Below the pieces are notes generated by a model. It ran no database searches. It was not told the origin of the DNA and was given only the letters and a program-made list of their open reading frames with translations. A DNA stretch of 60,182 nt. It comes from Thermoanaerobaculia bacterium. GTDB taxonomy: Bacteria; Acidobacteriota; Thermoanaerobaculia; Multivoradales; UBA5704. The translations under genes were made by a program, and so were the position numbers. The stretch is taken from assembly GCA_044226625.1 (NCBI GenBank), contig JBGAGQ010000037.1, positions 1-60,182 of the forward strand, given 5' to 3'. This document shows, in pieces, positions 7,244 through 28,108 of this stretch. Numbering within the stretch: the first letter of the stretch is position 1; every line of letters begins with the position of its first letter.

Positions 7244-7468
7244 CTACGCGCAGCAGATTTGGACGGAGCCGGTGCAGGTGTACTGGCAGGTGAACTCGCA
7301 GGTCCCGTTGCACGACCGCTGGCAGGTGAGCCACCAGGAGACCGGAATGATCGTCGCGTCCGCGTCCGCTTCGATCTCTGTCCCACCGCGCGCCGCGGCC
7401 ATCTGGGGGTGAGTCAACGAACCGAGGGTCTCTTTCGCCAGGTGCAGTTTGCGACGCTTCTTCTCCAC
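7244..7468 (-). CDS. RiPP precursor peptide (lanthipeptide-like), 74 aa
   Basis: GAGGAG SD + GTG; leader KKRRKLHLAKETL...ARGG (LxLxKxxL plus double-Gly); core with five (S/T)C repeats at period 4 and 7 Cys. Confidence 0.85.
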   Translation of the reverse strand: MEKKRRKLHLAKETLGSLTHPQMAAARGGTEIEADADATIIPVSWWLTCQRSCNGTCEFTCQYTCTGSVQICCA

Positions 7469-7701: not shown

Positions 7702-8541
7702 CTACAGATCCACCCGCCGCAGCCTCCGCAGCGCCCACAGCGGCGGTCCGACAATCCAGAACAGGAGCGAGGCCCCGAGGCAGATTCCGGCGCCGAGGGG
7801 TCCGTGGGTGAACCGCAGCAGGGCGAGCGATCCGGCGCCGAAGGCGGCGGTTCCTTCGATTCCGAGCATCGTGCCGGTGCGCACTACGTCGACCGGGTTG
7901 GCGAGCACGGTCGCGATCAGGACGCGCGAGGCGGAGAACGACGGGAGGAGGGACGCCACTCCTAAGGCCACGACGTCGATCAGGACGACCGCCGCGAACC
8001 AGACGACGAGGGCCAGGGCGAGCGCCCGCGACCTCTTGCGGCCGACCGCCGAGGCGGAGAGCAGGGCGGCCAAGCCGAGGAACACGGCGGTGAGGGCCAG
8101 CGAGCCGAGGAAGAGCAGGACGAACCCGCCCCAGCCTTGCCCTCCCGACTGGGCGAAGATCACGAGACCGGCGGCGCCGAAGCCGAGCGCCTGGGCGGCG
8201 GCGAGCGCCTCGAACAACCCGAGCAGCTTGCCGAACAGCAGCATGCCGCGGCCGATCGGCTGCGAGAAGAGGAGCTCCGCGGCGCCGCGCTCGGGCGCGA
8301 GCGACGTCACGCCGATCAGGAGCGAGGTGAGCGGCACGAGGAGGAGCACCAGGCGGACCAGCGACGAGGAGGTCCGCGCGAAATCCTGCATGCCGCTCCC
8401 CCCCGAGAGGACGTAGCCGGACGCCGCGACCGCCAAGGACAGGGCGGCGAAGACGATCGCGAACACCTGGGTCCATCGCGAGCGGAGCGCGAGCGTCAGT
8501 TCCAGGCGCGCGAAGAGCCCTAAGGATCGGCGATCGAACAT
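7702..8541 (-). CDS. nosY: ABC transporter permease NosY
   Basis: Multi-TM; LLVPLTSLLIG, ERGAAELLFSQPI, LANPVDVVR; in nos cluster. Confidence 0.92.
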   Translation of the reverse strand: MFDRRSLGLFARLELTLALRSRWTQVFAIVFAALSLAVAASGYVLSGGSGMQDFARTSSSLVRLVLLLVPLTSLLIGVTSLAPERGAAELLFSQPIGRGMLLFGKLLGLFEALAAAQALGFGAAGLVIFAQSGGQGWGGFVLLFLGSLALTAVFLGLAALLSASAVGRKRSRALALALVVWFAAVVLIDVVALGVASLLPSFSASRVLIATVLANPVDVVRTGTMLGIEGTAAFGAGSLALLRFTHGPLGAGICLGASLLFWIVGPPLWALRRLRRVDL

Positions 8542-8592
8542 CGGAGCCCTGCCTTTCTCGTCTCGAGGCGTGGACGGCAATCGGTCCTCGCC

Positions 8593-9063
8593 TCAGTTGC
8601 CGCCGGCGGGCGGCCCTTTCGGTCCGAACAGCTCGTGCATCTCGACCGGCACGCTCCCCTTCGCCTGGGGATCTTCGCGCCAGGCGAGGACGTTCCGGTG
8701 GGCGATCAGGCGCGACCCCATCGGCGTCTCGAGGCCGGTCGCGCGGTGATAGGTCGCCTGGTCGGCGCGGAGCCACTCCCCGCTCCGATGATCGGCGACG
8801 TAGGCGACCGCGCCGGACGGCAGGCTGGTCTGCGCCGCCAGATAGTCGCGCAGGCAGCCGATCTCGTCGAAGAACTTCGGCTCCTCGTTCGGCGCCACGA
8901 GCTGCGCCGCGAGCCTGTGGTCGGAGATCGCCATGCGGCACCAGGCACAGCTGTCGTTGTGGAGATCCAGGTCCTCCGGGGCCGGCATCCCTCCGGCGCA
9001 GCCGAGCGCCACGCACAGCGCGAGGAGCAGCGGACCGTGGACGACGTTTCGTTTGGGTTTCAT
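8593..9063 (-). CDS. nosL: Copper chaperone lipoprotein NosL
   Basis: Lipobox ALGC; CAWCRMAI, FDEIGCL, TPMGS. Confidence 0.92.
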   Translation of the reverse strand: MKPKRNVVHGPLLLALCVALGCAGGMPAPEDLDLHNDSCAWCRMAISDHRLAAQLVAPNEEPKFFDEIGCLRDYLAAQTSLPSGAVAYVADHRSGEWLRADQATYHRATGLETPMGSRLIAHRNVLAWREDPQAKGSVPVEMHELFGPKGPPAGGN

Positions 9064-10007
9064 GGAGTGTCCTCCTTCTGACGAACGATCTTCGACCCGG
9101 CTCCGCCGCGGTCCGCGAGCTCGACCAGCTCCAGATAGAGCTCGTCGAGCCGCCCTTCTTCGGCGGTGAGACCGCTGATCCGCGCTCCCGCCTCGCGCAC
9201 CAGGTCGAGTACCGTCGGACGCATCGCCGCGGGCCCGGGCACGCGAAGCTCGTCGTCCGACCAAGCCGCCTCGGGAGCGAGCCGACGGACCGCTTCGAGC
9301 AGCCCCGGCGGCCGGTTCTCGAAGCGGAGGCGCAGCACCCCGCGCGACGCGAGCCGGTCGGCGAGCTCGCGCTCGGAGAGCGTCGCCACGAGCCGCCCTT
9401 CGACCAGCACCATGAAGCGATCGGCCAGCCGCTCCACGTCGCCGAGGTGATGCGAGGTGAAGAGCACCGCCCGGCCCGCGCTGCGGCCGTCGCGGACCAG
9501 GTCGTAGAAAGCGGCGAGGCCGGAGGGATCGAGCGCCGCGGTCGGCTCGTCCAGCAACAGGACGGGCGCTTCGGGCAGCGCGGCGACCGCGAGGCCGAGG
9601 CGCTGCACCATGCCGCCGGAATACGTGCCCACCGCCCGAACCCCCGCGCCGTTGAGCGAGGCGAGGCGCAAGACCTCGTCGCTTCGCGCGGGTGGGGCGC
9701 CGCGGAGCGCGCGGAAGAACTCGACGACCTCGCGTCCCGAGAGCGCCTCGGGAAACGAGACCCGCTGCGGCAGGTACGAGAGGATGCGGCGCGCCGCGGG
9801 ATCGGACGCCGGCAAGGCGCCCTCTCCGAGGAGCACGCCGCCGGCGCTGGGATGAAGCAGACCCGCGGCGGCCTTGAGGCAGGTCGTCTTGCCCGAGCCG
9901 TTCGGTCCGAGCAGGGCGACCACCTCCCCCGCTTCGACTTCGAACGAGACGTCTTCGACCGCCAGGCGATCGCCGTAACGCTTGGTGAAGCGGTCGAAGC
10001 GGATCAT
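9060..10007 (-). CDS. nosF: ABC transporter ATPase NosF
   Basis: Walker A GPNGSGKT, signature YSGGMVQR, Walker B LLLDEP; ATGA overlaps at both ends. Confidence 0.92.
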   Translation of the reverse strand: MIRFDRFTKRYGDRLAVEDVSFEVEAGEVVALLGPNGSGKTTCLKAAAGLLHPSAGGVLLGEGALPASDPAARRILSYLPQRVSFPEALSGREVVEFFRALRGAPPARSDEVLRLASLNGAGVRAVGTYSGGMVQRLGLAVAALPEAPVLLLDEPTAALDPSGLAAFYDLVRDGRSAGRAVLFTSHHLGDVERLADRFMVLVEGRLVATLSERELADRLASRGVLRLRFENRPPGLLEAVRRLAPEAAWSDDELRVPGPAAMRPTVLDLVREAGARISGLTAEEGRLDELYLELVELADRGGAGSKIVRQKEDTP

Positions 10008-11407
10008 CGAGGTCCTTTCAAGCCACGCGAGAGGACGAGCGAGCCCAGGCTCACCGCGGCGAGCGAAACGGCGAGGCCCTTGGCGTCGGCGGTTCTCTCC
10101 CGCTCGTCGGGGCGCGGCACGCGCGGCAGCGACGGGGGGCGGGCGAGCGGATTGGGGTCCTCGACCGGCAGCGCCTCGAGCACCGGAAACGCCTCTTCGG
10201 CAAGCGCCAGCGCGGAGGCGGCGAAGCCCTCCGCCATCAAATCGGCGGCCGTGAGATTGCCGCGGAAGTGGTCGAAGACGTCGCTCAGGCGGTAGGGTCG
10301 ATCGCTCCGTCCGTCGCCGTCCAGATCGGGGACGCGATCGTCGGACCAGTAGTTCCCTTCGAACCGGGTATCGGTGCGCCGCCCGACCAGGTTGAGCGGC
10401 GAGAGGTTGCCGACGAACGAGTTGCCCAGGAACCGGTTGTCGCCGCACGAGTCGTAGAGCACGAGCGCGGCGTCCGACTCGGCGATGACGTTGCCGCGGA
10501 AGAGGTTGTGGTACGAGCCTTCGAGGAAGATTCCGCGGGCGTTGTCGGCGATCAGGTTGTCTTCGGCCACGATGTCGTCGCACGCCTTGAGCAGCAGGCC
10601 TACCGACGCGAAGCCGCGGTTGTGAAGGAAGCGGTTGCGCCGGAACACGATCCGCTTCGAGTACATGAGCGCCGTGCCCGCCGCGCCGTTTTCGAACGTG
10701 TTGTCCTCGAACAGGTTGTCGTCGGAGAACATGTAGTGCAGGCCGTACCGCAGGTCGCGCGCCGTGTTGCCGCGGATGACGCCGTGCGACGAAGACTGGA
10801 TGTAGACGCCGTCGCGCACGTCGACGATCACGTTGCCGGTGAGCTGGAAGCCCTGGGTGTTCCAGACGTGGAGGCCCGACCCCTTCTCCCCCGGCTCCTT
10901 GCCCGGAATGCCCTGCACCGTGGACCTCTCGACCACCGCGCCGTCCGCCTCGCGCAGGTAGATGCCGAACAGGCTGCCGGCGACCCGGCAGTCGCGGATC
11001 GTCGCCGCCTTGCCCGAGACGTGAATTCCGGAGGTGTCCCGCCCGAGATCGCCGCCGCCGCGGCCGTCGACGTCGAAACCCTCGACCGTGACCCGATCGG
11101 CGCGCACCCGTACCACGCTGCCCGAGCCCGAGCCGACCAGCCGCGGTCGCCCCTTGCCCACCAGCCGGAGCGGTCGGTCGATCACCAGATCGCCCCGGTA
11201 GATGCCAGCGGGCACGACCACCGTCGAGCCCGGCGGCGCGGCGTCGATCCGCGCCTGGAGCGGCGAGGCGTCGCGCGCGGCCGGCCGCCCTTCGAGCGTC
11301 GTCGCGGCCGGCATCGCGTCCGACGGCTCGGCGGCGCTTAGAGCACCAGCGCTCGTGGCGGTCCCCACGAACAGGACCAGCGCGAGGCCCCAGGCGGCCC
11401 GGCTCAT
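10004..11407 (-). CDS. nosD: NosZ maturation protein NosD (beta-helix)
   Basis: Signal peptide; VRDGVYI, LRYGLHYMFSDDN, ALMYSKR, GNYWSD...DLDGDG. Confidence 0.95.
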   Translation of the reverse strand: MSRAAWGLALVLFVGTATSAGALSAAEPSDAMPAATTLEGRPAARDASPLQARIDAAPPGSTVVVPAGIYRGDLVIDRPLRLVGKGRPRLVGSGSGSVVRVRADRVTVEGFDVDGRGGGDLGRDTSGIHVSGKAATIRDCRVAGSLFGIYLREADGAVVERSTVQGIPGKEPGEKGSGLHVWNTQGFQLTGNVIVDVRDGVYIQSSSHGVIRGNTARDLRYGLHYMFSDDNLFEDNTFENGAAGTALMYSKRIVFRRNRFLHNRGFASVGLLLKACDDIVAEDNLIADNARGIFLEGSYHNLFRGNVIAESDAALVLYDSCGDNRFLGNSFVGNLSPLNLVGRRTDTRFEGNYWSDDRVPDLDGDGRSDRPYRLSDVFDHFRGNLTAADLMAEGFAASALALAEEAFPVLEALPVEDPNPLARPPSLPRVPRPDERERTADAKGLAVSLAAVSLGSLVLSRGLKGPR

Positions 11408-12036
11408 CGCGGCTCCCAGCTCCTCGCGCCGCGCCAACCGAGCGCGAGCGCCGCAAAGAGCAGCAGGGCCACCGCCCCGAGACAGTACGAGGCGGCGGCG
11501 GGGTACGAATAGACCTGGAAGTTCGCGAGCTGCTTGAAGCCGAACAGCGGCGGCATGAACGGCGGCACTTTGACCGCCGCCGTGGGCAGCAGGTGATGCC
11601 CGTAGCTCCAGAGCTTGTGGGCGAACGACCAGAGCGAGAAACCCGCGAAGTAGACGTAGAGCACGACCACGTCGACCAGCTTGCCGAGCTCGCCATGGAC
11701 CGCGGCGCGCAGGAATAGCAGGCCGAGCCCGCCGATCGCGAGCGGCAGCCAATGGAACTCGGTGAAATCGTCGGCCGCGAGGTCGTGCATGCCGATGTAG
11801 TGGTTGAGGAGGTTGATTTCCTTCAGGTCCTGGCCGGCGTTGCCGCCGACCAGTTGGTAGCTGTAGATGTGGAGGCGCAACCCGTCCGGATACTGGGGCG
11901 CGAACATCGTCATGTCCCAGAGCGGCGCGAGATAGGCCGGGATGAGCAGCAGGGCCGCGAGCACAAGCAGCAGCCGCGGCGCGCCGCCGAGCGGCGCGTG
12001 CAGCAATTTCGTCTCTCGATCCAGCTTCGTGCCCAT
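11404..12036 (-). CDS. nosB: NosB-like membrane protein of clade II nos clusters
   Basis: APQYPDGL and INLLNHYIGM motifs, ~4 TM segments, directly after nosZ. Confidence 0.85.
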   Translation of the reverse strand: MGTKLDRETKLLHAPLGGAPRLLLVLAALLLIPAYLAPLWDMTMFAPQYPDGLRLHIYSYQLVGGNAGQDLKEINLLNHYIGMHDLAADDFTEFHWLPLAIGGLGLLFLRAAVHGELGKLVDVVVLYVYFAGFSLWSFAHKLWSYGHHLLPTAAVKVPPFMPPLFGFKQLANFQVYSYPAAASYCLGAVALLLFAALALGWRGARSWEPR

Positions 12037-12092
12037 GACAAACCTCGCTTCCGCTTTCCGGACGGGAGCGCTCCCGTCCTCCGTTCAGATCG

Positions 12093-13946
12093 TCAGTTCT
12101 CGACGATCAGGTAGCCCTGCATCTCCTGGTGGAGCGCCGAGCAGAAATTGGTGCAGTAGTAGGGGTAGACGCCCGGCTTGTCAGCCTTGAAGGTGAACGT
12201 CTTCGTCTCCCCCGGATCGACCACGATGTTGACGTTGTAGTCGAGCAGGCCGAAGCCGTGCAGCTCGTCCGTGGTCTGCTCGATGTTGGTGATCGCGACG
12301 GTGACCGTGTCCCCCTTCTTCACCGAGAACGAGGTCGGCGTGATCGTCGAGCGCACTTCGACGACCTTGACCGTGACGTGATCTCCCTGCCGCGTGACTC
12401 CCGCGTCCTTGACGTCCCAGGCCGCGAGCGGATGGTGGTTCTCTTCCTTCGGATAGACCTCGATCGGATGGAGCTTGTCCGCCTTGATCATCTGGGCGTA
12501 GTGCGGCTCGGGCTCGGTGAAGGCGTCGTAGAGCAGCTTCATCTTCTCGCCCGAGATGTCGACCAGCTCGGAGGATTCCGGCTGCGACGGGCCGACCGAG
12601 AGGTGCCGGCCGTGCGACAGCTTGTTCAGACCCACCAGGTACTCGCCCTTCGGATGCGCCGTGTCCCCTTCGGCGGCCGTGAGGTGGCCAATCGAATACG
12701 ACATCGGAACCTTGTCGACCACTTCCCAAGTGCCGAGCTTCCATTTCGCGATCGCGCTGTCGACGAACAGCGAGGTGTAGGCGAAACCGTCGGGACCGAA
12801 CTGGGTGTGCAGCGGACCGAGGCCGACCGGCACCTCGGCGTCCTTGATCGACTCGTACTTCAAGACCGGAATGCCGTCCTCGTCCCCGGTGAAGTCCTTG
12901 TTGCGGATCGCCGTCTGGATCTTCTCGAAGTTGAAGACCGTGGTGACGCCCTGGAGCTTGCCCGAGCCGACGACGTACTTGCCGTCCGGCGAGACGTCGA
13001 CGCCGTGGGGCGACTTGCCGCAGGGCAGCAGATAGACGAGCCCCGGGACCTTCGCCGGATCGATCACCTTGACGCCGCCGATCAGCTCGCCCGCCCCGGC
13101 GGCCGCCGCTTTCTCCGCGGCGCGCCAGTCGATCGCCGCGATGTAGTCGCGGTCGCGCTGGGTCGAGGTCGTCTCGAGCTTGCCCGTAGCGCGCTCGGTG
13201 TTGTACGAGGTCCAGAACATCCAGCCGTCGGAGGCGCCCTTGCCCGCGTCGCCGAGGTCGTAATCGAACGGCGGCATCAAGATTTCCCAACCGAGCGAGA
13301 GCTCGCCGCTCTTCGGTTCGATCTTGATCGCGGCGACGACCCCTTTATATTGCGTGCCGTAGCTGTCGACCGGCGCCACGGTCCCCTTGGGAATCGGGAT
13401 CGAAAAACGCGAGGCCATCATGCTGTACTCGCTGTTCGGCGTGACGAATGCGGACGCGTGGTTGCCCGAGACGTTCGGCACCGGGCCGAAGATCTGCTTG
13501 GTCTTGAAATCGCGCAGGTCGATGCGCGCCACCCGGCCGTTCATCTCGTTGACGAACAGCCAACGCCCGTCGTAGTCGCCGTTGGTCTCGGAGAGCGCCG
13601 GATGGTGGACGTCGCCCCAGGTCAGATTGCCGAGCATCTTCTTCGAGTCGTCGTCGAAGCCGTAGCCGGTCGCCGGGTACGGCGTGAACACCGGAATCGT
13701 CGAGATGTGCCGCATCGACGGCACGCCGTAGACGTAGACCTGGCCGGAATGGCCGCCCGAGGCGAAGAGGTAATACTGGTCGAGGTCACCGGGGGCGACG
13801 TAGGTCTTCTGCGCCGCGTACGCGACGTCGGAGACCGCGCGCCCGGGCTCGGCTCCTTTGGGCGCCTTCGGTGCGCATCCCCAGGCGATCGCGAACAACA
13901 GGGCGGCGGATGCGATCCCGCCCACGATCAGGTTCTTCTTGCTCAT
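12093..13946 (-). CDS. nosZ: Sec-dependent clade II nitrous oxide reductase
   Basis: CuZ His motifs DVHH, GNH, PHG, PLH, GHL, EPH; CuA HGF...CTNFCSALHQEM; no twin-Arg; 617 aa; GGAGGGAG SD. Confidence 0.98.
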   Translation of the reverse strand: MSKKNLIVGGIASAALLFAIAWGCAPKAPKGAEPGRAVSDVAYAAQKTYVAPGDLDQYYLFASGGHSGQVYVYGVPSMRHISTIPVFTPYPATGYGFDDDSKKMLGNLTWGDVHHPALSETNGDYDGRWLFVNEMNGRVARIDLRDFKTKQIFGPVPNVSGNHASAFVTPNSEYSMMASRFSIPIPKGTVAPVDSYGTQYKGVVAAIKIEPKSGELSLGWEILMPPFDYDLGDAGKGASDGWMFWTSYNTERATGKLETTSTQRDRDYIAAIDWRAAEKAAAAGAGELIGGVKVIDPAKVPGLVYLLPCGKSPHGVDVSPDGKYVVGSGKLQGVTTVFNFEKIQTAIRNKDFTGDEDGIPVLKYESIKDAEVPVGLGPLHTQFGPDGFAYTSLFVDSAIAKWKLGTWEVVDKVPMSYSIGHLTAAEGDTAHPKGEYLVGLNKLSHGRHLSVGPSQPESSELVDISGEKMKLLYDAFTEPEPHYAQMIKADKLHPIEVYPKEENHHPLAAWDVKDAGVTRQGDHVTVKVVEVRSTITPTSFSVKKGDTVTVAITNIEQTTDELHGFGLLDYNVNIVVDPGETKTFTFKADKPGVYPYYCTNFCSALHQEMQGYLIVEN

Positions 13947-13997
13947 TTCGTTCTCCCTCCCAGCGGTTGGTTCGCAGTACTCCGTCCGCACGCCGGG

Positions 13998-15281
13998 CTA
14001 ATGGCCCGGGAGCGCGCCGGCAACCGGAGCGGCCGACGGATTCGAGGCGGCGAGCGATGCCGGGGCGGCCGATGCCCCACCCGCCGCGGTTTGACGTTGG
14101 TGCTCGAGGAAAGCCTCGCGAAGCTTCTGCACCGCGATCGCCTTCTCTTCGGGCGACAAGATGATTTGGCGCGACAGGACCACCGACATCGTGCCGGTCG
14201 GCTCGCGCAGGAAGTCGTCGATCGTCCGGCCGAAGCGCGATTGCACGTCCTCGACCGCGGTCGAAAGGTCGGGGCCGATCTGCGCCGGGCTCGTGACGCC
14301 GAGCGAAGAGATCGAGTGGCAGACGAAGCAGCCGGTCTTGACGAACCAGGCGCCGGGACCGTTCTTCATCGCCGCTTCCTTCGCGGCCTCTTCCGGCGTC
14401 GTCGGATCGGTGCGCGGCGCGCCGGCGAGGTATTGGGCCGGCAGGTCGCTCCGCTTCCACGACAGGACGAGCATGGCGAGCGCCTGCGCCTCCTCGGTCG
14501 TGAAATCGAAGCTCGGCATCACCGTGTCCTCGACCATCGCGCGCGGGTTCTTGAAGTGCGCCACGTGCCAGGCGAACGCCGTCTTCTGGCCGAACGTGCG
14601 GCTGTAGTCGTACTGCTCGGGCGCCTTGTCGCCCACGTTCGTGAGATCGGGGCCGATCGTGCCGCCGCGACCGTTGATCACGTGACAGGCGCGGCAACCC
14701 TTGCTCTGCACCAGCGCCTTCGCCCGATCGATCGCCGCCATCCCCGGCGTCTCGCGGTCGTAGCGGTGACATACGTTGCAATTCATTTGGAGCAGGGAGC
14801 CTCGATCGCCCGCGAGCGTGTAGGCCTCGCCGAGCCGTCGTCCGAGGAGCGGCTCTTCCCAATGGGCCATCTCGCCGTGCGCCGCGGCGGTGTCGATCGC
14901 CCATCCCTGACCGCCGTGGCACGGGGTACAGCCGAACTTCTCGACCGGATGTTTGGCGAGCGGCTCGACCGGGTGCGTGCGGAACGGCTCCTCGGCGTTC
15001 TCGAAGCCTTTCCAGGTCGTCGCCTGATGGCAGGTGATGCAGCGGTCCGCGCGTCCGAGGTCGGCGATCCAGTGCTGCTCGATTCCTGCCGGGATCGATT
15101 TGGCTTTGTCCGCGCCGTACTTTTCGCTTACCTGGCGGCGGAATTCGTACTGGTAATAACGCCAGTCGTGCACCCGGTCGCGCCAGGCGAAGAGGGCGGT
15201 CGAAATCACCAGCGCCACGCCGACCAGGGCGAGGATCGGCCGATCGCGGCGCGGGTAGGGCGAGCTCGTGCGCTGTTCCAT
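13998..15281 (-). CDS. Membrane-anchored pentaheme cytochrome c
   Basis: N-terminal TM helix; CITCH, CTPCH, CNVCH, CRACH, CFVCH; starts 2 nt after cyt b stop. Confidence 0.92.
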   Translation of the reverse strand: MEQRTSSPYPRRDRPILALVGVALVISTALFAWRDRVHDWRYYQYEFRRQVSEKYGADKAKSIPAGIEQHWIADLGRADRCITCHQATTWKGFENAEEPFRTHPVEPLAKHPVEKFGCTPCHGGQGWAIDTAAAHGEMAHWEEPLLGRRLGEAYTLAGDRGSLLQMNCNVCHRYDRETPGMAAIDRAKALVQSKGCRACHVINGRGGTIGPDLTNVGDKAPEQYDYSRTFGQKTAFAWHVAHFKNPRAMVEDTVMPSFDFTTEEAQALAMLVLSWKRSDLPAQYLAGAPRTDPTTPEEAAKEAAMKNGPGAWFVKTGCFVCHSISSLGVTSPAQIGPDLSTAVEDVQSRFGRTIDDFLREPTGTMSVVLSRQIILSPEEKAIAVQKLREAFLEHQRQTAAGGASAAPASLAASNPSAAPVAGALPGH

Positions 15282-15283
15282 GG

Positions 15284-16642
15284 TCAGATCCTCGACGGGA
15301 CTTCGGGCCAGCTCTCCCAGGGCCAATAGAAATGCCAGTAGGGGCCGCGGCAGAGGGTGCCCACGAGAGTGAGCCCGAGGATCAAGAGACAGAGGAGGAG
15401 GAAGACGAGGTTCTGCCGCTTGCGCTCCGCCGCGAACCAGGCGCCGGTCGCCTCGCGCGAGCTGCGGTCGAGCCAGGGCCAGACCGTGAGCAGGCCGACG
15501 AGCAGGCCCGGCAGGATCACGCCGCCCAGGAACGCGCCGTTGATCGTGAAGCTCCCGAGGTGGATCGTCGTGTCGGTGACGATCTCCTGCAGCCAGAGGA
15601 AGTACCAGGGCGCCTTGGCCGGGTTCGGGGTGACCAGCGGGTTCGCCGGCTCTTCGAGCGGCGACGGGATGAACAGGGCGAGCGAGCCGACCAGCGCGAG
15701 CGTGCCGAGGACGACGATCGCCGCGCGGCGCAGCAGATCGGGGACGGAGTTGACCGTCGCGTCCGGCGCGTCGAGCGTCGCGGCGTGGATGCGCGGCGAC
15801 GTGCCGCGCGCGACACCGAGCAAGGTGTAGGTCTTCGTCTTGCCCGCGGGGATCTCGCGCTTCTCGGCCAGCAAGACCGAGCGGTCCGCCCGCGCGAGCC
15901 CGCCGTCCTTGCGGATGCGCCACATGTGGTAGAGGAACAGGCCGCCGAGCAGGCCGGGCAGCGCGAGGACGTGCAGGACGTAGAAGCGGATCAACGTCGG
16001 CTGCTCGATCGTGCGGCCGCCGATCAGCAGCTCGCGGACCGAGGCGCCGATCCAGGGGATCGACGAGGCGATGTTGGTCCCCACGGTGACCGCCCAGTAG
16101 GCGAGCTGGTCCCATGGGAGCAGATAGCCGGTGAACGAGAGGAACAACGTCGCGAGGAACATCGCGACGCCGATCACCCAGTTCCAACGCCGCTCCTGGC
16201 CGCGACCGACGCCGTTCTTGTAGGCGCCGGTGAGGAAGACGCGCGCCAGGTGGAGGAAGGCGACCGCCACCATCAGGTGCGCGGAGATCCGATGCACGGC
16301 GCGGATCCACGAGCCGAAGGCCACGACGTATTCGATGTCCTTGACCGAGGCGTACGCCCGCTCGACCGAGGGGATGTAAAGGAAGAGGAGCGGCCCGCCC
16401 GAGAGGATCAGCAGCAGGAGGAGCGCGGCCGACACCGTGCCGAGCCAGTAGGAGTAGTTCCAGTCGAGCGACGACTTCGCGATCTTCGCCGGGAACCAAT
16501 GGAGCAAAAAGTTCGAGACCACCGCGTCGCCCGCCTCGCGGTCGGAGCGCGGGCGCAGGCTCCAGAACCTCCGCGGGTGGACGCCCGGCGCGGACGGCGC
16601 GATCGTCGCGAGATCGGTGGGGATCGGTTTCGGCTCGGCCAT
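15284..16642 (-). CDS. Cytochrome b of a Rieske/cyt b complex (b6-like domain fused to subunit IV-like domain)
   Basis: His pairs HRISAHLMVAVAFLH and HVLALPGLLGGLFLYH; FTGYLLPWDQLAYWA; KAPWYF at the PEWY position. Confidence 0.93.
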   Translation of the reverse strand: MAEPKPIPTDLATIAPSAPGVHPRRFWSLRPRSDREAGDAVVSNFLLHWFPAKIAKSSLDWNYSYWLGTVSAALLLLLILSGGPLLFLYIPSVERAYASVKDIEYVVAFGSWIRAVHRISAHLMVAVAFLHLARVFLTGAYKNGVGRGQERRWNWVIGVAMFLATLFLSFTGYLLPWDQLAYWAVTVGTNIASSIPWIGASVRELLIGGRTIEQPTLIRFYVLHVLALPGLLGGLFLYHMWRIRKDGGLARADRSVLLAEKREIPAGKTKTYTLLGVARGTSPRIHAATLDAPDATVNSVPDLLRRAAIVVLGTLALVGSLALFIPSPLEEPANPLVTPNPAKAPWYFLWLQEIVTDTTIHLGSFTINGAFLGGVILPGLLVGLLTVWPWLDRSSREATGAWFAAERKRQNLVFLLLCLLILGLTLVGTLCRGPYWHFYWPWESWPEVPSRI

Positions 16643-16652
16643 GGCGACTCCC

Positions 16653-17186
16653 CTACGCCAGCGTCAGGCGGAAATCGGGATCGACTTCGGCCGCGAGATC
16701 GACCACCAGTTGGCTGTCGTCGGGAGAGACCGAAAGGCGATACCAGGTGAGCGGTTTGGGCGCCGGGCCGGAGACGTTGGTCCCGTCGCCGTCGTAGCGC
16801 GAGCCGTGGCAGGGGCAGAGGAAGCGATGGGTCAAACGGAGCGGGGCGCCGCCGACCTCCTTGGTCTCCGGACGCGACAGAGCCTCCGCCCGGACCGTGC
16901 AGCCGAGGTGGGTGCAGACCGCCGAGATCGCATGGAAGGTCTTGCCGTCGCGAAAGACGAAGAGCCGTTGATCGGGAAGGTATTTGAGACCGTCGGGAAA
17001 CTCTTGGGTGAGACCGAGCTTCACGGTCGTCGGAGCGTCGTAGGAGACGTTCGGAACCAGCGATCGAAGCGAGGCGACCGCCTGGCCGCCGAGCGCCGCG
17101 ATGCCGGCGCCCGTGCCCAGTTTCAGGAGGAAATCCCGGCGGCTCTCTCCGCGCGCCGTTTCGGCCGTGGGTTGCTCGTCGCTCAT
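16653..17186 (-). CDS. Rieske [2Fe-2S] protein, Tat-exported
   Basis: SRRDFL; CTHLGC and CPCHGSRY. Confidence 0.95.
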   Translation of the reverse strand: MSDEQPTAETARGESRRDFLLKLGTGAGIAALGGQAVASLRSLVPNVSYDAPTTVKLGLTQEFPDGLKYLPDQRLFVFRDGKTFHAISAVCTHLGCTVRAEALSRPETKEVGGAPLRLTHRFLCPCHGSRYDGDGTNVSGPAPKPLTWYRLSVSPDDSQLVVDLAAEVDPDFRLTLA

Positions 17187-19231
17187 CTCGCGGCTCCCTC
17201 TCGGGCCGGGAGAGCCTCGGCGGCTTCGGCCCAACGTTCGGTGATCGTGAAGCGCTCCATCGTCATGGCGTCGGTCGGACAGCGGATGGCGCAGAGGCCG
17301 CATCGAATACAGCGGTCGTCGTCCTTGATCATCGCGGCGAGCGGCAAGCCGTCCGCCGCGGCGCGCTCGGACAGCGCCTGCCGTTCGTCCTCCGGCAGAT
17401 CGAGTTCGGACAGCGGCACGATCGCCAGGCAGTACTCCGGGCAGGCGTCGACGCAGCGGCTGCAGAGGACGCAGAGCTCCGGGTCGTAGATCGTCTGGAC
17501 GTGGCAGACCAGGCAGCGCGCCGCCTGCTCGCGCGCGGCCTCGGCGTCGTAGCCGGTCTCGACCTCGGCGATGCCGGTGCGTCGCCCGACGTCGAGCGTC
17601 GGCGGCACCTCGCGGTCGAACAGCTCGAAGCCGGCCGCCATCCGGTAGCGGGAGGTCGGGATCTTCTCGATCTCGAGCAGCGCCTCGATCCGCGGCGGCT
17701 CCTCCGCTCCGAGACCGGCCAGGTGCTCGTGGATCGAGCGCGCCGCGAGCTTGCCGTTCGCGACCGCCTCGATCAGGTTGCGCGGCCCGAACGCGACGTC
17801 GCCGCCCGCGAACACGCCCGGGGCCGACGTGGCGAGCGTCTTCGGATCGACGCGGATCGTGCCGCCCGGCGTGAGCTCGACGCCGTCCTCGGGGCGGAGG
17901 AACGAGAGGTCGGCCCGCTGGCCGATCGCGAGGATGCAGGCGTCGGCCGGGATCGTGATGCAGTCGCTCGGGTCGTACGCCGGAGCGAAGCGTCCGGCGT
18001 CGTCGAACACCGCGGTCACCTTCTTGAGCTCGATCGCTTCGAGCCGGCGCTCGCCGAGGAATCGTTGCGGACCGCGCCGGGTGAGGAAGTGGACCCCCTC
18101 CTTCTGCGCTTCGACCAGCTCCTCGTGCCCCTGCGTGGTCTTGAGCACGGGCATCTCTTCGAACTGCTCGAGCGAGACGATCGTGACCTCGGCGGCTCCG
18201 CCGCGCAGCGCCGCGCGCGCCGAGTCGAACGCCTCTTTGACCCGCGCGTCCGCCGCGCCGGCCCCTTCGGCCGCTTCGACGTGACGCTCCAGCTCGTCGA
18301 CTTCCTCTTCGCTCTCGAGGTGTCCGAGGCGCAGCGCCGTGCGCGCCGCGTCGAAGGCGACGAATCCGCCGCCCACCACGACCACGCGCCGGCCGAGATC
18401 CATCCGGAATCCGCGGTTGACGTTCAACAGGTAGTCGACCGCCTTGACCACCCCGTCGAGCTCGACGCCGGGAATCGCGAGATCGCGCCCCGCCGAGACG
18501 CCGACCGAGAGGAAGGTCGCTTCGAAACCCTGCTCGCGCAGCGCGGAAAGGCCGAAGTCGGCCGAGAGCGGAGCGTTCAACCGAAGCGTCGCGCCGAGCG
18601 CGAGAATCTTGTCGATCTCGGAGCGGATCAACGTCCGCGGCAGGCGGTACTCGGGGATGCCGAAACGCATCATGCCGCCGGGCTCGGCGGCGGATTCGAA
18701 GACCGTCACCGCGTACCCGAGCAGCGCGAGGTCGTGCGCCGCCGCGAGCCCCGCGGGGCCGGCGCCGATCACCGCGACCTTGCGCTCGCGTCCCGATGAA
18801 GTGCTTCCCCGAGGGCTTTCCGCAACGTCCTGGCCGACGACCGGAAAGAGCGTCCGGACCGGCCCCGTCGACGAGTGCCCGGGGTAGCGGTTTCCTTCGC
18901 CGAACCCTTCGCGGAACAGGCGATCCTGCGTGTCCGGGCGGATCGACTCGACGCCGAAGCGCTCGGTGACATAGCGCTTGAGCGCGCGAATCGAGACCGG
19001 GGCGTCGATCGCGCCACGGCGGCAGGCGTCTTCACAGGGGGCGGCACAGACGCGCCCGCAGACCGAGGCGAACGGGTTCGGCGAGCGCGCGACGAGGAAC
19101 GCGTCCTCGAGGCGACCCTCCGCGATCAACTGCACGTAGCGCCCGGCATCGGTGCGAACCGGGCAGCCGGTCTGGCACTTCACTTGGCGCTGCCAAGCCG
19201 AAAGGTCGGGTGCCTTCGCGCGTACGCTCAT
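17183..19231 (-). CDS. Cytoplasmic FAD/NAD(P)H oxidoreductase with N- and C-terminal Fe-S domains (GltD/NfnB/DsrL-like architecture)
   Basis: CQTGCP, CGRVCAAPCEDAC; GAGPAG and GGGFVA Rossmann motifs; ARCLVC; two CxxCxxCxxxCP motifs; no signal peptide. Confidence 0.92.
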   Translation of the reverse strand: MSVRAKAPDLSAWQRQVKCQTGCPVRTDAGRYVQLIAEGRLEDAFLVARSPNPFASVCGRVCAAPCEDACRRGAIDAPVSIRALKRYVTERFGVESIRPDTQDRLFREGFGEGNRYPGHSSTGPVRTLFPVVGQDVAESPRGSTSSGRERKVAVIGAGPAGLAAAHDLALLGYAVTVFESAAEPGGMMRFGIPEYRLPRTLIRSEIDKILALGATLRLNAPLSADFGLSALREQGFEATFLSVGVSAGRDLAIPGVELDGVVKAVDYLLNVNRGFRMDLGRRVVVVGGGFVAFDAARTALRLGHLESEEEVDELERHVEAAEGAGAADARVKEAFDSARAALRGGAAEVTIVSLEQFEEMPVLKTTQGHEELVEAQKEGVHFLTRRGPQRFLGERRLEAIELKKVTAVFDDAGRFAPAYDPSDCITIPADACILAIGQRADLSFLRPEDGVELTPGGTIRVDPKTLATSAPGVFAGGDVAFGPRNLIEAVANGKLAARSIHEHLAGLGAEEPPRIEALLEIEKIPTSRYRMAAGFELFDREVPPTLDVGRRTGIAEVETGYDAEAAREQAARCLVCHVQTIYDPELCVLCSRCVDACPEYCLAIVPLSELDLPEDERQALSERAAADGLPLAAMIKDDDRCIRCGLCAIRCPTDAMTMERFTITERWAEAAEALPAREGAAR

Positions 19232-19280: not shown

Positions 19281-19296
19281 TATGACCGGCGTCATA
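19281..19296. promoter_or_regulatory. Crp/Fnr-type box upstream of the oxidoreductase-Rieske-cytb-cytc-nos operon
   Basis: Perfect palindrome TATGAC-CGGC-GTCATA about 50 nt upstream of ATG 19231; FNR-box geometry. Confidence 0.75.
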
Positions 19297-19371: not shown

Positions 19372-20055
19372 TCAGCCCTGCGCGATGTCGCTCAGAGCGT
19401 CGCGATCGAGCAGGAGAAACCCTTCGGGCTCGGTGCGGACGATCCCGTCCTTGCCCCACCGGCTCATCACCCGAATGGCGGTCTCGATCGTCGTGCCGCA
19501 GAGATCGGCGAGCTCCTGGCGGGAGAGGCGTACCGGCACGAACAGCCCGTCGGCCCGCCGTTCGCTCTCCGTCTCCGCAAGACCGAGGATCGAGCGCGCG
19601 ATCCTCGCTTCGACCCGCAACCCGGTCAGGTCGGACAGCCGCGCGGTCAGCTCCACCAGGCGGAGCGAGAAGCCCGAGAGAAGCCCGCGCACGAGCGAGG
19701 GATGGGCATCGAGCGCGGCCAGGAACGCGTCGCGCTCGAACCCGATACAGGTTGCGTCGACGAGCGCGATCGCCGCCGCGGGAAACGGCCTCGCTTCGAA
19801 GACCGCCACGGCGCCCACGGGATCGCCCGGTCCGAACAGGTCGAGGATCAGATCGCGACCGCTCGGCGTCGACTTGACGACTTTGATCCGGCCGGTGACG
19901 ACGAGGTAGAGGACGAGCGACGGATCCCCTTCGCGGAACAACACCTGGCCTCGCGCGAACGTCTCCAGGCGAGCAAGCCCGGCGAGCCGCGCACGATCCT
20001 CCGCGGCCAAGCGTCGAAACATCGGCACCCGGGCGATCTCGTCCTCGAGCGTCAT
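19372..20055 (-). CDS. Crp/Fnr-family regulator (DNR/HcpR-like, no N-terminal Fe-S Cys cluster)
   Basis: cNMP-like domain LFREGDP...GRIKV; HTH LSRQELADLCGTTIETAIRVMS; GGAGG SD. Confidence 0.92.
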   Translation of the reverse strand: MTLEDEIARVPMFRRLAAEDRARLAGLARLETFARGQVLFREGDPSLVLYLVVTGRIKVVKSTPSGRDLILDLFGPGDPVGAVAVFEARPFPAAAIALVDATCIGFERDAFLAALDAHPSLVRGLLSGFSLRLVELTARLSDLTGLRVEARIARSILGLAETESERRADGLFVPVRLSRQELADLCGTTIETAIRVMSRWGKDGIVRTEPEGFLLLDRDALSDIAQG

Positions 20056-20083
20056 CCTCGTCCTCCCCGCGAAACCCGACGAT

Positions 20084-20125
20084 ATGACGGGGATCATGCA
20101 CGCCTCGCGCGGCCCGCGCTAGGGT
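20084..20125 (+). promoter_or_regulatory. Second Crp/Fnr-type box with class II promoter geometry for ric
   Basis: ATGAC-GGGG-ATCAT (20084-97), then TAGGGT -10 at 20120-25, placing the box centre near -41.5. Confidence 0.7.
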
Positions 20126-20164: not shown

Positions 20165-20902
20165 ATGACCCCATTCCAAACCGACCAACCCGTGGGCGAC
20201 ATCGTCGCCCGGTTCCCCGGCGCGAGCCGGCTGTTCGAGCGTCACGCCATCGACTACTGCTGCGGCGGCCGGACCTCGCTCGATGACGCCTGCGCCGAAC
20301 GCGGCCTCGAGCCCGGAGCGATCCTCGCGGAGATCGAAGCCGCCCGTGCCACCGCCCCCGCCGTCGATCGCCGCGACTGGACGACGGCCCCGATCTCGGA
20401 GCTGATCGACCACATCCTCGTCGCGTACCACGCGCCGCTCCGCGAAGACCTCGCCCACCTCACCCGCCTTTCGAGCCGAGCGCTCACGGCCCACGGCGAC
20501 GATCGGCTCCCCATGACCAGGCTCTGCCGCGTGCTCGGAGACCTCCGCGCCGAGCTCGAATCGCACCTCCTCAAGGAAGAGATCGTCCTCTTCCCGGCAG
20601 CCGGACGCCTCGCAGCGGCAGCCGCGGCACCCTCCTCTGGCGTGAGGGTCGCCGAACCCTGCGGCTCGATCGCCGTCCCGATCCAGGCCATGGAGCACGA
20701 GCACGCCGACGCGAGCGCCCAGCTCGCCGCCCTCCGCGAAATGACCGGCGGCTACGCCGTCCCCTCCTGGGCCTGCCCCACGTTGACCGAGCTGATCCAA
20801 GGCCTCCAGAAGCTCGAGGAGGATCTCCACCGGCACATCCACCTGGAGAACGAGGTCCTGTTTCCGCGGACTTTGGAGCTGACGTCGCGGAACGCGGGCT
20901 AG
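20165..20902 (+). CDS. ric: Iron-sulfur cluster repair di-iron protein (RIC/YtfE/ScdA)
   Basis: IDYCCGG; hemerythrin ligands HLLKEE..LFP, MEHEH, HIHLENEVLFP. Confidence 0.95.
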   Translation: MTPFQTDQPVGDIVARFPGASRLFERHAIDYCCGGRTSLDDACAERGLEPGAILAEIEAARATAPAVDRRDWTTAPISELIDHILVAYHAPLREDLAHLTRLSSRALTAHGDDRLPMTRLCRVLGDLRAELESHLLKEEIVLFPAAGRLAAAAAAPSSGVRVAEPCGSIAVPIQAMEHEHADASAQLAALREMTGGYAVPSWACPTLTELIQGLQKLEEDLHRHIHLENEVLFPRTLELTSRNAG

Positions 20903-21043: not shown

Positions 21044-22589
21044 ATGCCGCGACCCAAAGCCACACCTGTAGACGCCCCCTCCCCGCTCGGCTTCGAGGCG
21101 AAGCTCTGGGCCGCCGCGGACGCCCTGCGCAACAACATGGACGCGGCGGAGTACAAGCACGTCGTCCTCGGGTTGATCTTCTTGAAGTACATCTCGGACG
21201 CGTTCGAGGCGAAGCACGCCGAGCTCGAAGCGCAGACCGCCGAGGGGGCCGATCCGGAAGACCCGGACGAGTACCGCGCCGCGAGCATCTTCTGGGTGCC
21301 GATGGAGGCGCGCTGGTCGCACCTCAAAGCGAGCGCTCCGCAGCCGACGATCGGCGAGGTCGTGGACGGCGCGATGGCGGCGATCGAGCGCGACAACCCG
21401 ACGCTCAAGGGGGTATTGCCGAAGGAGTACGCCCGCCCGGGGCTCGACAAGCAGCGCCTAGGACAGATCGTGAATCTCGTCTCGGATATTGCGCTCGTCG
21501 ACAGCGTCTCGAAATCGAAGGACCTGCTCGGAAAAATCTTCGAATATTTCTTGAAACAGTTCGCCAGCGCTGAGGGGAAGAAAAGCGGCCAGTTCTACAC
21601 ACCTGAGCACGTGGTGCATCTGCTGGTCACGATGCTCGCCCCGTACAAGGGGCGGGTTTACGACCCCTGCTGCGGATCGGGTGGGATGTTCGTTCAGAGC
21701 GAGAAGTTCATCGAGGCGCACGCGGGCAAGCTCGACGACCTTTCGATTTTCGGCCAGGAGAGCAACTACACGACCTGGCGACTCGCCAAGATGAATCTCG
21801 CGATCCGCGGTATCGACGCGCGGATCGAGCACGGAGACTCGTTCCACAACCATCGCCATCCGGACCTGAAGGCGGACTACGTGCTCGCGAACCCTCCGTT
21901 CAACGACAGCGACTGGCGCGGGGAGCTGCTGGCGAAAGACCCGCGTTGGGTCTACGGGCAACCGCCCGCGGGGAACGCGAACTTTGCGTGGGTGCAGCAC
22001 TTCCTCTACCACCTCGCGCCGAACGGCATCGCGGGCTTCGTGCTCGCGAACGGCTCGATGTCGACGAATCAATCGGGCGAGGGAGAGATCCGCAAGGCTA
22101 TCCTCGAAGCCGATCTCGTGGACTGCATGGTGGCGCTGCCCGGGCAGCTCTTCTATTCGACGCAGATTCCGGTGTGCCTGTGGTTCCTCGCGCGGGGGCG
22201 ACAGAACGGACGGTTCCGCGACCGGCGCGGGAAGACGCTTTTCATCAACGCACGCAAGATGGGCACGATGGTCGATCGCGTGCATCGCGAGCTGACCGAC
22301 GGGGACATCGCGCGCATCGCCGGGACCTACCACGCCTGGCGCGGCGACCCGGGCGCGGGGGAGTATGAGGACGTGGCGGGGTTCTGCAAGAGCGCGACGA
22401 TCGATGAGATCCGTTCTCACGGGCATGTGTTGACGCCGGGTCGGTATGTCGGTACTGCGCCGCTGGAGGAGGATGAGGAGCCGTTCGAAGAGAAAATGCG
22501 GCGGCTGGCGGCGACGTTGCGGGAGCTGCAGGCGGATGTGGCGAGACTAGATAAGGAGATCGCCGCAAACTTGAAGGAGCTTGGGTTTG

Positions 22590-22597
<8 letters not shown>
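21044..22597 (+). CDS. hsdM: Type I R-M methyltransferase subunit (m6A)
   Basis: [21 protein letters not shown]; N-terminal LWAAADALR. Confidence 0.97.
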
Positions 22598-23900
<1,303 letters not shown>

Positions 23901-23910
23901 TGGCGCAAAT

Positions 23911-24954
23911 ATGCGACTGCACATTCACCGTAGTCAGTTCGAGGCATGCCCTCCCTATAACGACTGGCTGGATCGAAACCATGCCAATGAATACGGAACG
24001 CTCGACATCCACGGATTCCAGCCTCGACCGAGTGAAGTTCTTTTCATTTTGAGCCCCGATACTTATCAGGCAGCCTTCGAGGACTTTCAGAGAGAATGGG
24101 AGGAAGATCTTAAAGAGAGGGTCTTCACCGCCTTCCCATCGCCAATTGCTCACTACTTCTACCGCTTTGTAACCGGCTATGAAAGCGACCTCCAACGATT
24201 GCACTTCCTGCGTGATACATGGGAGTCAATTGTGGATATTCTTCACGCGATCGCGATTTCTGAATGCAGACATATTGGCTTGTCGCTCGCCGAGCCCATG
24301 AAGTTTTCAGATCTCATGTCGGACAAGATGTCACTACGCTTGTTGAACATAGAGCGAATCATCCTCGCGGGAGAGAGCGCCGGCCGTACATTGAAGATTG
24401 CGGGAATTGTGTCTACCGCTACGCTCGAGAAGATGCGCGAACTGAATCAGACCAGAAACGCCTTTTCCCACGGCGCGGCTCTGTCTGAAGCCCAAGCACG
24501 AGTTTGGATTTCGGAATGCTATGCAGACGTTATCGACGTGCTCGACGATATTGTCGGTCTGGCCGATGTTGAAGTTTGGCGATACTTCGGCCAGTCGGAT
24601 GGAAATACTTTGCGCTGTGAGACATTCCGCGGTCACGGATTGACGCGCACTATTAAGAGTATGTCCTTGAGTCCAACTCAAGTTGCCGAATCGCGACAGT
24701 ATTTTCAACAGGGTCAGATCCTTGTCTCTTGCGCTGGGGACCTTTTCAGCCTCCGCCCGCTTGTTTACTTCAAGGAAGATACGTCGGGGCACATGACCAA
24801 GCTGTGCGTCTACCGCCGCACACATGGAGATACGTCGGGCCGAAAGGTGGAATATGAGATCGTTGGTGAAGGATCCCGCCTGAGCGAGGACCGAGCCACA
24901 GTCCAGTCTGACATTAACGATCTTCGATCCTTGTTCGGCCTTTCTCCGGAGTAG
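23911..24954 (+). CDS. Hypothetical protein with HEPN-like RNxxxH motif, inserted between hsdS and hsdR
   Basis: 347 aa, visibly lower GC; [12 protein letters not shown] (RNAFSH at 24454-24471); 10 nt after hsdS and 4 nt before hsdR. Confidence 0.8.
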
Positions 24955-24958
24955 GGAA

Positions 24959-27900: not shown

Positions 27901-28108
27901 CCGCGCGATCGCCCGCGAGCTGGTGGCGACCGTGCGCAAGAACGTCACCATCGACTGGACGATCCGCGACAACGTGCGCGCCCAGCTCCGCGTGCTGGTG
28001 AAGCGGATCCTGCGGAAGTACGGCTACCCGCCGGACAAACAGGAGAAAGCGACCCAGACCGTGCTCGAACAGGCGGAGGTCCTGTCGGAAGCTTGGACCG
28101 TCGCATAG
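24959..28108 (+). CDS. hsdR: Type I R-M restriction subunit
   Basis: RPD...IELK nuclease motif; HTQGSGKS; DEAH; FTGTP; MQAIARVNR. Confidence 0.97.

Follow-up and report, generated by a model that had tools for sequence, protein, structure and literature searches.

A clade II nosZ operon in a Thermoanaerobaculia bacterium with genes for a candidate flavoprotein-bearing Rieske/cytochrome b complex

Introduction

How do electrons reach NosZ where its gene is preceded by a flavoprotein gene and three genes for subunits of a quinol-oxidising complex? The question is raised by a locus of a Thermoanaerobaculia bacterium (assembly GCA_044226625.1, contig JBGAGQ010000037.1), here analysed as a stretch of 60,182 nucleotides (nt; the window) in which genes for a flavoprotein, a Rieske protein, a cytochrome b and a multiheme cytochrome c stand directly upstream of a clade II nosZ. 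To our knowledge, NosZ is the sole biological sink of nitrous oxide (N2O), a greenhouse gas, electron delivery to its clade II form is only partly understood, and flavoprotein-bearing Rieske/cytochrome b complexes, although of a known kind, are biochemically uncharacterised. On balance, we favour the view that the operon encodes a self-contained N2O respiration, the first four genes specifying a NosZ-dedicated, flavoprotein-bearing Rieske/cytochrome b complex that is a variant of the type found in anaerobic ammonium-oxidising (anammox) bacteria.

Clade II NosZ is said, by Hein, Witt and Simon in 2017, to depend on a quinol oxidase of the Rieske/cytochrome b type and on NosB. The Rieske/cytochrome bc complex of Wolinella is reportedly a general one, encoded away from nos, with no flavoprotein subunit described. 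The present locus resembles Wolinella in combining a clade II NosZ with a Rieske/cytochrome b-type quinol oxidase and NosB, but here the complex is encoded in the nos operon itself, and the window showed neither NosG and NosH nor NosC1 and NosC2. Sanford et al., in PNAS in 2012, reportedly described clade II nos clusters with Fe-S, Rieske, cy-b and cy-c genes, and a figure legend of PMC11096178 draws such clusters with ‘Fe-S’, Rieske (‘S’), ‘cy-b’ and ‘cy-c’ upstream of nosZ.

The anammox bacterium Kuenenia stuttgartiensis has two Rieske/cytochrome b clusters, Kuste4569-4574 and Kustd1480-1485, whose complexes include a putative NAD(P) oxidoreductase and whose Rieske subunits have been solved as 9rk4 (Kuste4569) and 9rk3 (Kustd1480), according to the passages of PMC12954380 on these complexes. 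The same passages cite Kartal et al. 2013 for the proposal of quinone-based bifurcation and de Almeida et al. 2016 for a complexome study in which all subunits co-migrated.

Results

Organisation of the nos operon

NosZ matches Pfam nos_propeller (E-value (E) 2.7e-33) and Cupredoxin_1 and is of the Sec-dependent (clade II) type, scoring 896 bits against TIGR04246 (cut-off 625) and 430 bits, below the cut-off, against the model for the type exported by twin-arginine translocation. With a Sec-type NosZ, a nosB-like gene directly downstream and nosDFY (Table 1), the locus has the make-up of a clade II nos cluster. The NosB-like protein has no Pfam or NCBIfam match, and its position right after nosZ is kept in loci L013 and L014 and in 15/16 public NosZ-linked loci, the sixteenth (L024) ending soon after nosZ. 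The clusters drawn in PMC11096178 are alike in having nosB and nosDFY after the gene of a Sec-type NosZ and genes for cytochrome c, cytochrome b and a Rieske protein ahead of it; they differ in that their first gene is labelled, in the part of that paper available to us, merely as an iron-sulfur protein. No literature text was found that calls the first gene of a nos cluster an NAD(P)-type flavoprotein, or that ties nos clusters to the anammox complexes, in a search that did not extend to subscription reviews and supplements, so that either may already be in print.

Gene calls give a co-directional run on the minus strand (7702-19231) in a window of ~70% G+C. Read base by base, the stop and start of the flavoprotein and Rieske genes overlap as ATGA, the Rieske and cytochrome b genes are joined by TAG, 10 nt and ATG, and the cytochrome b and cytochrome c genes by TGA, 2 nt (‘cc’) and ATG; a further 51 nt separate the cytochrome c gene from nosZ. 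An earlier note on this DNA, made from its letters alone, had described five tight same-strand genes with exactly these spacings, and is borne out in every detail. Overlaps like that of flavoprotein/Rieske also join nosB to nosD and nosD to nosF. A scan for terminator-like sites (5 found, 6.3 expected) placed none between genes of the operon, the two minus-strand sites both lying within coding sequence, and the sole sigma-70-like match of a promoter scan is on the wrong strand. The reading of the five genes as a single compact unit, all in one direction and preceded by a Crp/FNR-type box, is supported, and they are presumably co-transcribed. The absence of nosR/X and nosG/H, also claimed earlier, was confirmed for the window, where no such protein is present among the 27 scanned with Pfam, the rest of the genome lying outside that search.

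Products of the four genes upstream of nosZ

The flavoprotein belongs to the GltD/NfnB-like FAD/Fe-S (flavin adenine dinucleotide/iron-sulfur) class. It consists of a Fer4_20 domain (E 6.1e-19), a two-Rossmann core (Pyr_redox_2, 1.3e-31) and a family-specific C-terminal module carrying a 2x[4Fe-4S] ferredoxin domain (two Fer4 matches), and 17 Cys are invariant in its alignment (A3). No hydrophobic segment is present in its sequence, and it is predicted to be cytoplasmic and soluble. Its relatives in the PDB are NfnA (9n5u), 9bov/9bp5, NfnI (5jca_L), GltD and FwdF (5t5i), and Foldseek found full-length fold similarity of the AlphaFold2 single-chain model (predicted local distance difference test, pLDDT, 79.9; predicted template modelling score, pTM, 0.82) to 9bov_A (E 2.8e-38) and 5jca_L (E 2.1e-34). 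It thus shares Fer4_20, two Rossmann domains and the full-length fold with the NAD(P)H flavoproteins of the NfnB/GltD/NfnABC type, but differs from them in the extra C-terminal module and in having membrane respiratory subunits as neighbours. A role in glutamate synthase or Nfn was rejected because the gene, which lies between a Crp regulator gene and the Rieske gene, has no adjacent NfnA-like or GltB-like partner gene and because scores fall below curated cut-offs (best NCBIfam model NF009410, 393 bits, cut-off 516).

The C-terminal module (residues 510-682, ~170 amino acids (aa)) has 442 cluster matches at E <= 1e-10 among 1.84 billion representatives, and these sit at the C-terminal end of proteins of 600-700 residues. 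Within it, residues 533-550 are conserved yet modelled with low confidence: R540 is invariant, and conservation reaches 90% or more at P543, P544, R550 and R551. Conservation together with disorder in the model is the appearance to be expected of a docking segment.

The Rieske protein (Pfam Rieske, E 3.8e-12) has a twin-arginine N-terminus (SRRDFLLK) and is closer to the two Kuenenia proteins than to any other solved Rieske, with 9rk4 first (E 1.7e-17) and 9rk3 second (E 1e-15); a b6f Rieske protein follows (5.6e-14), and all b6f and bc1 Rieske proteins rank lower. Two Planctomycetota loci with flavoprotein homologs have adjacent Rieske proteins whose top matches are the same two structures. 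Among the 30 genomes with flavoprotein homologs in a sample of 401 Planctomycetota, none has a Rieske protein near-identical to 9rk3/9rk4, the best match being that of L134 (E 1.1e-31). HZS_alpha (PF18582), tried as a marker of anammox genomes, was set aside as unspecific, having matched 4/4 Planctomycetota genomes that do not look like anammox as well as a Bacteroides control.

Cytochrome b (Pfam Cytochrome_B, 1.3e-40; Cytochrom_B_C, 3.5e-8) is a single fused protein with seven hydrophobic segments, in which four b6-like helices are joined to three resembling those of subunit IV; its top PDB relative is cytochrome b6 (1q90_B, E 1.5e-36). As in canonical b6f and bc1 complexes, all four His residues that ligate hemes bL and bH are kept (H117, H131, H224 and H239, all invariant). 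Departures from those complexes are a quinol-site motif that reads APWY and not PEWY, Trp in place of the heme-cN Cys, and a pentaheme cytochrome c instead of cytochrome f or c1. The Trp is shared by the window and 15/16 public NosZ-linked loci, the sixteenth having Tyr, and a Cys at this position is absent from all 72 cytochromes b that adjoin a flavoprotein. On the cytoplasmic side H48, R242, R244 and K245 are invariant and may, with flavoprotein residues 533-550, form the docking surfaces of the two proteins. Cytochrome c (Cytochrom_C, E 2.2e-15) carries five CXXCH motifs and one hydrophobic segment (residues 15-33), an N-terminal membrane anchor.

Conservation and inheritance of the module

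A profile scan (alignment A1) of one genome per species returned 557 relatives of the flavoprotein, of which the best 80 loci, from many phyla, were kept; the counts of loci below refer to these. A cytochrome b gene lies beside the flavoprotein gene on the same strand in 72/80 loci, the other eight ending at a contig edge, while a Rieske gene (tblastn) was found in 65/80 and a multiheme c gene in 64/80. The earlier note had let its proposal depend on conservation of the flavoprotein with Rieske/cytochrome b, and that conservation is seen, as far as cytochrome b goes, in all of these loci that are not cut. NosZ then NosB is present in 16/80 loci and cbb3 oxidase genes in 8/80. Since the flavoprotein keeps Rieske/cytochrome b with or without nosZ (72/80, just 16 of them with nosZ), its constant partner is the Rieske/cytochrome b core and not NosZ. 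A separate sample of Planctomycetota gave a flavoprotein match at E <= 1e-60 in 30/401 genomes; Rieske and/or cytochrome b adjoin the flavoprotein in 27/30 best-match loci, one of the remaining three being cut at the flavoprotein and two having no Rieske/cytochrome b match in their 1.5-kb flanks.

The six-gene order of the window recurs in the 16 public NosZ-linked loci and in L013 and L014. Record titles of the 16 name Acidobacteriota, Thermoanaerobaculia, Vicinamibacterales, Terriglobia, Anaeromyxobacter sp. PSR-1, Anaeromyxobacteraceae, Bacteroidota, Candidatus Kryptoniota and Calditrichaceae; the flavoprotein of Anaeromyxobacter sp. PSR-1 (L027) is 69% identical to that of the window. Among 41 related genomes, full-length flavoprotein orthologs with the same six-gene order are found in G004 and G023 (83% and 76% identity), and homologs at 47-53% identity in four others lie beside Rieske/cytochrome b without nosZ. 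nosZ itself was found in 3/41 (G000, to which the window belongs, G004 and G023), exactly those with a full-length flavoprotein ortholog of >75% identity. Within the genus, flavoprotein, cytochrome b and nosZ were all recovered from 2/8 genomes; the other 6/8 (completeness 85-100%) yielded none of them.

In a flavoprotein tree (84 rows, MAFFT and FastTree; IQ-TREE on 47/84 rows, being all 21 of the NosZ clade plus 26 chosen at random) the NosZ-linked proteins form one clade of 21 tips, 19 NosZ-linked and two on cut contigs (FastTree support 0.956; SH-aLRT 91.6 with IQ-TREE on the 47 rows). Cytochromes b of NosZ-linked loci likewise form one clade (19 tips, support 0.724), and linkage to nosZ is accordingly of old date and no local accident. 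The rows linked to cbb3 oxidase make up a separate clade (support 0.989), a porin-cytochrome/cupredoxin pair is likewise tied to flavoproteins outside the NosZ clade, and 33/84 have no identified terminal partner. As a set of genes the module is genuine and widespread, and it is passed on as one block.

As a family the module is not specific to NosZ, contrary to what had been supposed, its flavoprotein-Rieske-cytochrome b core being tied elsewhere to cbb3 genes or to a porin-cytochrome/cupredoxin pair. For the organism studied here the word ‘dedicated’ remains plausible. Its genome (97.9% complete) has one cytochrome b of this family and one nosZ (nos_propeller), both in the operon, while ActD of alternative complex III is encoded at two other loci and NuoD (NDH-1) at two. 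The Rieske/cytochrome b complex accordingly looks like one reserved for respiration of N2O, with alternative complex III probably handling general quinol oxidation.

Loci of the cbb3 clade (L017:24-7286, L018, L063, L066, L067, L079 and L087) have the order Rieske, cytochrome b, multiheme c, CcoN, CcoO, flavoprotein. In 21/80 loci the core is accompanied by an extra gene pair (L015:3470-5575; L016, L019, L039-L042, L046-L049, L052, L055 and others). Its first product (470-500 aa) has a signal peptide, one CXXCH, a porin-like C-terminal part and an aromatic last residue; it has no Pfam or NCBIfam match, and Atlas annotation gives ‘Cytochrome C family protein’, with a porin domain for 12% of one cluster. 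The second (195 aa) has a cupredoxin-like His/Cys/His/Met pattern and a CarboxypepD_reg domain, and the pair recalls outer-membrane electron conduits of the Cyc2/rusticyanin type. Homologs of the 195-aa protein lie within a few kb of both ActD loci, on contigs C17 (10217-12777) and C42 (4187-11190) of G000. A single 390-aa open reading frame (ORF) at L015:7527-8699, Rieske-like in its N-terminal part (tblastn) and with a domain resembling cytochrome b6 at residues 190-370, looks like a natural fusion of Rieske and cytochrome b.

Comparison with the anammox complexes

In AlphaFold3 models described in the same passages of PMC12954380, a single flavoprotein sits at the cytoplasmic side of the dimer of cytochrome b, with four Fe-S clusters leading to FAD and an extra heme b, between cytochrome b and the flavoprotein, held by an N-terminal His of each cytochrome b, beside Arg/Lys of cytochrome b and an Arg of the flavoprotein. 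The conserved His, Arg and Lys of the window proteins may play a similar part, the resemblance being one of residue types. Like the anammox clusters described there, the window has, in one cluster, genes for a Rieske protein and a b6-like cytochrome b, for a multiheme c where f/c1 would stand and for a cytoplasmic NAD(P)-type flavoprotein, with a high-potential acceptor on the periplasmic side, and its flavoprotein has the same solved relatives (9bov/9bp5 and FwdF, 5t5i) as are reported there for Kuste4570.

In the window, however, the terminal partner is NosZ, encoded in the operon, where the anammox clusters have an octaheme protein of the HAO type; its cytochrome c has five hemes in place of six or eight, and the flavoprotein gene comes first. 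Public record titles name no anammox bacteria as hosts, and one host is a strain of the cultured genus Anaeromyxobacter. The anammox analogy drawn in the earlier note can be kept in part: it stands at the level of sequence for the Rieske protein and of fold and relatives for the flavoprotein; cytochrome b departs from it in being without the heme-cN Cys.

Regulatory sites and genomic setting

The palindrome TATGACGCCGGTCATA, a candidate site for a Crp/FNR-family protein, begins 63 nt upstream of the flavoprotein ATG. The earlier note had placed a single palindromic box ahead of the unit; the box is there. Its core, TGAY-N4-RTCA, has one further copy in the 60-kb window (20085-20096), which falls ~70-80 nt upstream of scdA/RIC and within the opening codons of the Crp/FNR gene. 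Such a placing suggests that one regulator governs both the flavoprotein-operon and scdA promoters. The core is found upstream of the flavoprotein gene in 11/21 NosZ-linked loci, counting that of the window, and L022, L023, L025, L026 and L075 have orthologs of the Crp/FNR regulator (50-58% identity) close to the cluster.

Table 1 Features of the nos region in the window.
Feature	Positions	Strand	Length	Remarks
NosY-like ABC-2 permease	7702-8580	-		ABC2_membrane_2, E 8.2e-17
NosF-like ABC ATPase	9060-10007	-		ABC_tran; overlaps nosD stop
NosD	10004-11407	-		Pfam NosD, E 2e-42; overlaps nosB stop
NosB-like membrane protein	11404-12036	-		Named by position only; three hydrophobic segments
nosZ	12093-13946	-	617 aa	
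Cytochrome c gene	13998-15281	-	427 aa	
Cytochrome b gene	15284-16642	-	452 aa	
Rieske gene	16653-17186	-	177 aa	
Flavoprotein gene	17183-19231	-	682 aa	
Palindrome TATGACGCCGGTCATA	19281-19296	.		Candidate Crp/FNR-family site; putative function
Crp/FNR-family regulator	19372-20097	-		Directly upstream; Pfam cNMP_binding, HTH_Crp_2, Crp
ScdA/RIC-type di-iron protein	20165-20902	+		Divergent; Pfam ScdA_N and Hemerythrin

The region is flanked by an rve-type integrase gene (2073-3215) and by a type I restriction-modification system (21044-28108; hsdM 21044-22597, hsdR 24959-28108) at which G+C dips to ~0.59. Together with the patchy occurrence of the nos block in the genus, these features suggest that the nos region is an acquired island. 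Between the nosF-like and nosY-like genes, ~480 nt (8581-9059) have no clean ORF in the gene call; a small gene, for example nosL, may have been missed there, or the assembly may contain a frameshift. Just downstream of the nosY-like gene, a 74-aa ORF on the minus strand (7244-7468) has gene-like third-position G+C and a Cys-rich tail, with 9 Cys in the final 27 residues, but no family match. Further away, a 6207-aa open frame on the minus strand (39550-60131), with condensation and adenylation domains in its first 1000 residues and preceded by a 653-aa adenylation/carrier protein, looks like part of a non-ribosomal peptide synthetase cluster.

Discussion

A possible electron path

The flavoprotein is likely to be a true subunit, or an obligate partner, of the Rieske/cytochrome b core. 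In the path that we favour, quinol would be oxidised at the periplasm-side site of the seven-helix cytochrome b. The first electron would pass from the Rieske cluster to the membrane-anchored pentaheme c and on to periplasmic NosZ, while the second would cross the membrane by way of both b hemes. On the cytoplasmic face the soluble flavoprotein, docked by its C-terminal module, would join this chain of b hemes to the NAD(P)+/NAD(P)H couple by means of about four Fe-S clusters and FAD. If the flavoprotein is so attached, there is an even chance that quinol-driven reduction of NAD(P)+ is pulled by the N2O/N2 couple, which would be bifurcation of the kind proposed by Kartal et al.; use of NAD(P)H as electron donor is a more tentative possibility, and some other function a more doubtful one.

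Midpoint potentials are about +1.35 V for N2O/N2, -0.07 V for menaquinone and -0.32 V for NAD+, so that the downhill branch can pay for the uphill one and quinone-based bifurcation of the anammox type is feasible. The terminal partners that could be named, NosZ and cbb3 oxidase, are both of high potential, a pattern that is suggestive of bifurcation but that holds for any complex III.

Several points weigh against this interpretation. Unlike the b6 plus five-helix subunit IV of the anammox complexes described in PMC12954380, cytochrome b of the window is a fused seven-helix protein, and it has Trp where those complexes, in the same account, and b6f have the heme-cN Cys; the last step of the anammox electron path is therefore not transferable as it is. 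The link of the flavoprotein to Kuste4570/Kustd1483 is indirect, running via shared solved relatives, and both its contact with cytochrome b and the direction of electron flow are putative. The NDH-1 genes make an extra NAD(P)H input redundant, which is no positive support for NAD(P)+ reduction, and gene neighbourhood and co-inheritance would equally fit a soluble, co-regulated enzyme. Finally, two copies of the box core in the window are near the ~1 expected from base-composition arithmetic, and weight therefore rests on position and recurrence and not on number.

Competing explanations

The strongest competitor is the same complex run in reverse, with NAD(P)H reducing FAD and the Fe-S clusters, then a cytoplasm-side heme b or quinone site, and electrons leaving through Rieske and pentaheme c to NosZ, a NAD(P)H:N2O route bypassing NDH-1. 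This route was put forward in the earlier note, the domain set of the flavoprotein is that of reversible NAD(P)H enzymes, and refilling of the quinol pool by NAD(P)H is called conceivable in the cited part of PMC12954380. We nevertheless consider it unlikely: NDH-1, encoded at two loci, would conserve more energy, which makes the donor direction less useful, and for the anammox complexes the reverse flow is judged unlikely on the same ground (PMC12954380, same passages).

Less probable still is a soluble, co-regulated and unattached flavoprotein that supplies reductant for upkeep of the NosZ copper centre or for redox balancing, as a stand-in for NosR/NosX, while Rieske, cytochrome b and pentaheme c run an ordinary Q cycle to NosZ. 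Such a role would agree with the lack of NosR, NosX, NosG and NosH among the 27 scanned proteins of the window, with the lack of a membrane segment and with the normal place of GltD/NfnB-type proteins in soluble complexes. But the flavoprotein gene goes with cytochrome b in 72/80 loci and with nosZ in just 16, no NfnA-like or GltB-like partner gene adjoins it, and its family-specific C-terminal module is conserved and poorly ordered alone; the anammox subunits, moreover, co-migrate (PMC12954380, in the passages cited). It is this family-wide linkage to Rieske/cytochrome b that makes an unattached flavoprotein the least likely of the arrangements in which module and nosZ belong together.

That the Rieske/cytochrome b module and nosZ are recent, uncoupled neighbours on a mobile island, as their patchy presence in the genus (2/8 genomes) and the nearby integrase gene and type I restriction system (21-28 kb, with its G+C dip) might suggest, was rejected as very improbable, given a six-gene order conserved in L013, L014 and 16 public loci of several phyla (by record title), agreeing single clades for NosZ-linked flavoproteins and cytochromes b, and the position here of the only such cytochrome b of the genome.

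Implications

In the view favoured above, a sizeable group of clade II reducers would have a complex-III-like enzyme to itself, equipped with an NAD(P)-type flavoprotein. Were bifurcation to operate, two quinols would be oxidised for two electrons sent to NosZ and two sent uphill to NAD(P)+, and NAD(P)H would be made without spending proton-motive force. The same core with a cbb3 oxidase or with the porin-cytochrome/cupredoxin pair would then be one respiratory device. It is conceivable, though we hold it only tentatively, that many clade II N2O reducers respire via a quinone-based bifurcating complex and that this is a general NAD(P)+-reducing device for any acceptor of very high potential. 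If the flavoprotein works as proposed for anammox bacteria, the energy and reductant balance of N2O respiration needs revision; even if it is an input or a bystander, genes annotated ‘glutamate synthase small subunit’ or ‘Fe-S protein’ beside nosZ would be those of respiratory subunits.

Anammox bacteria are slow-growing and genetically intractable. Anaeromyxobacter sp. PSR-1, of a cultured genus, carries the module, so that the bifurcation proposal made for anammox becomes testable by genetics and membrane biochemistry. The finding places an anammox-type design in widespread N2O reducers, among them this strain.

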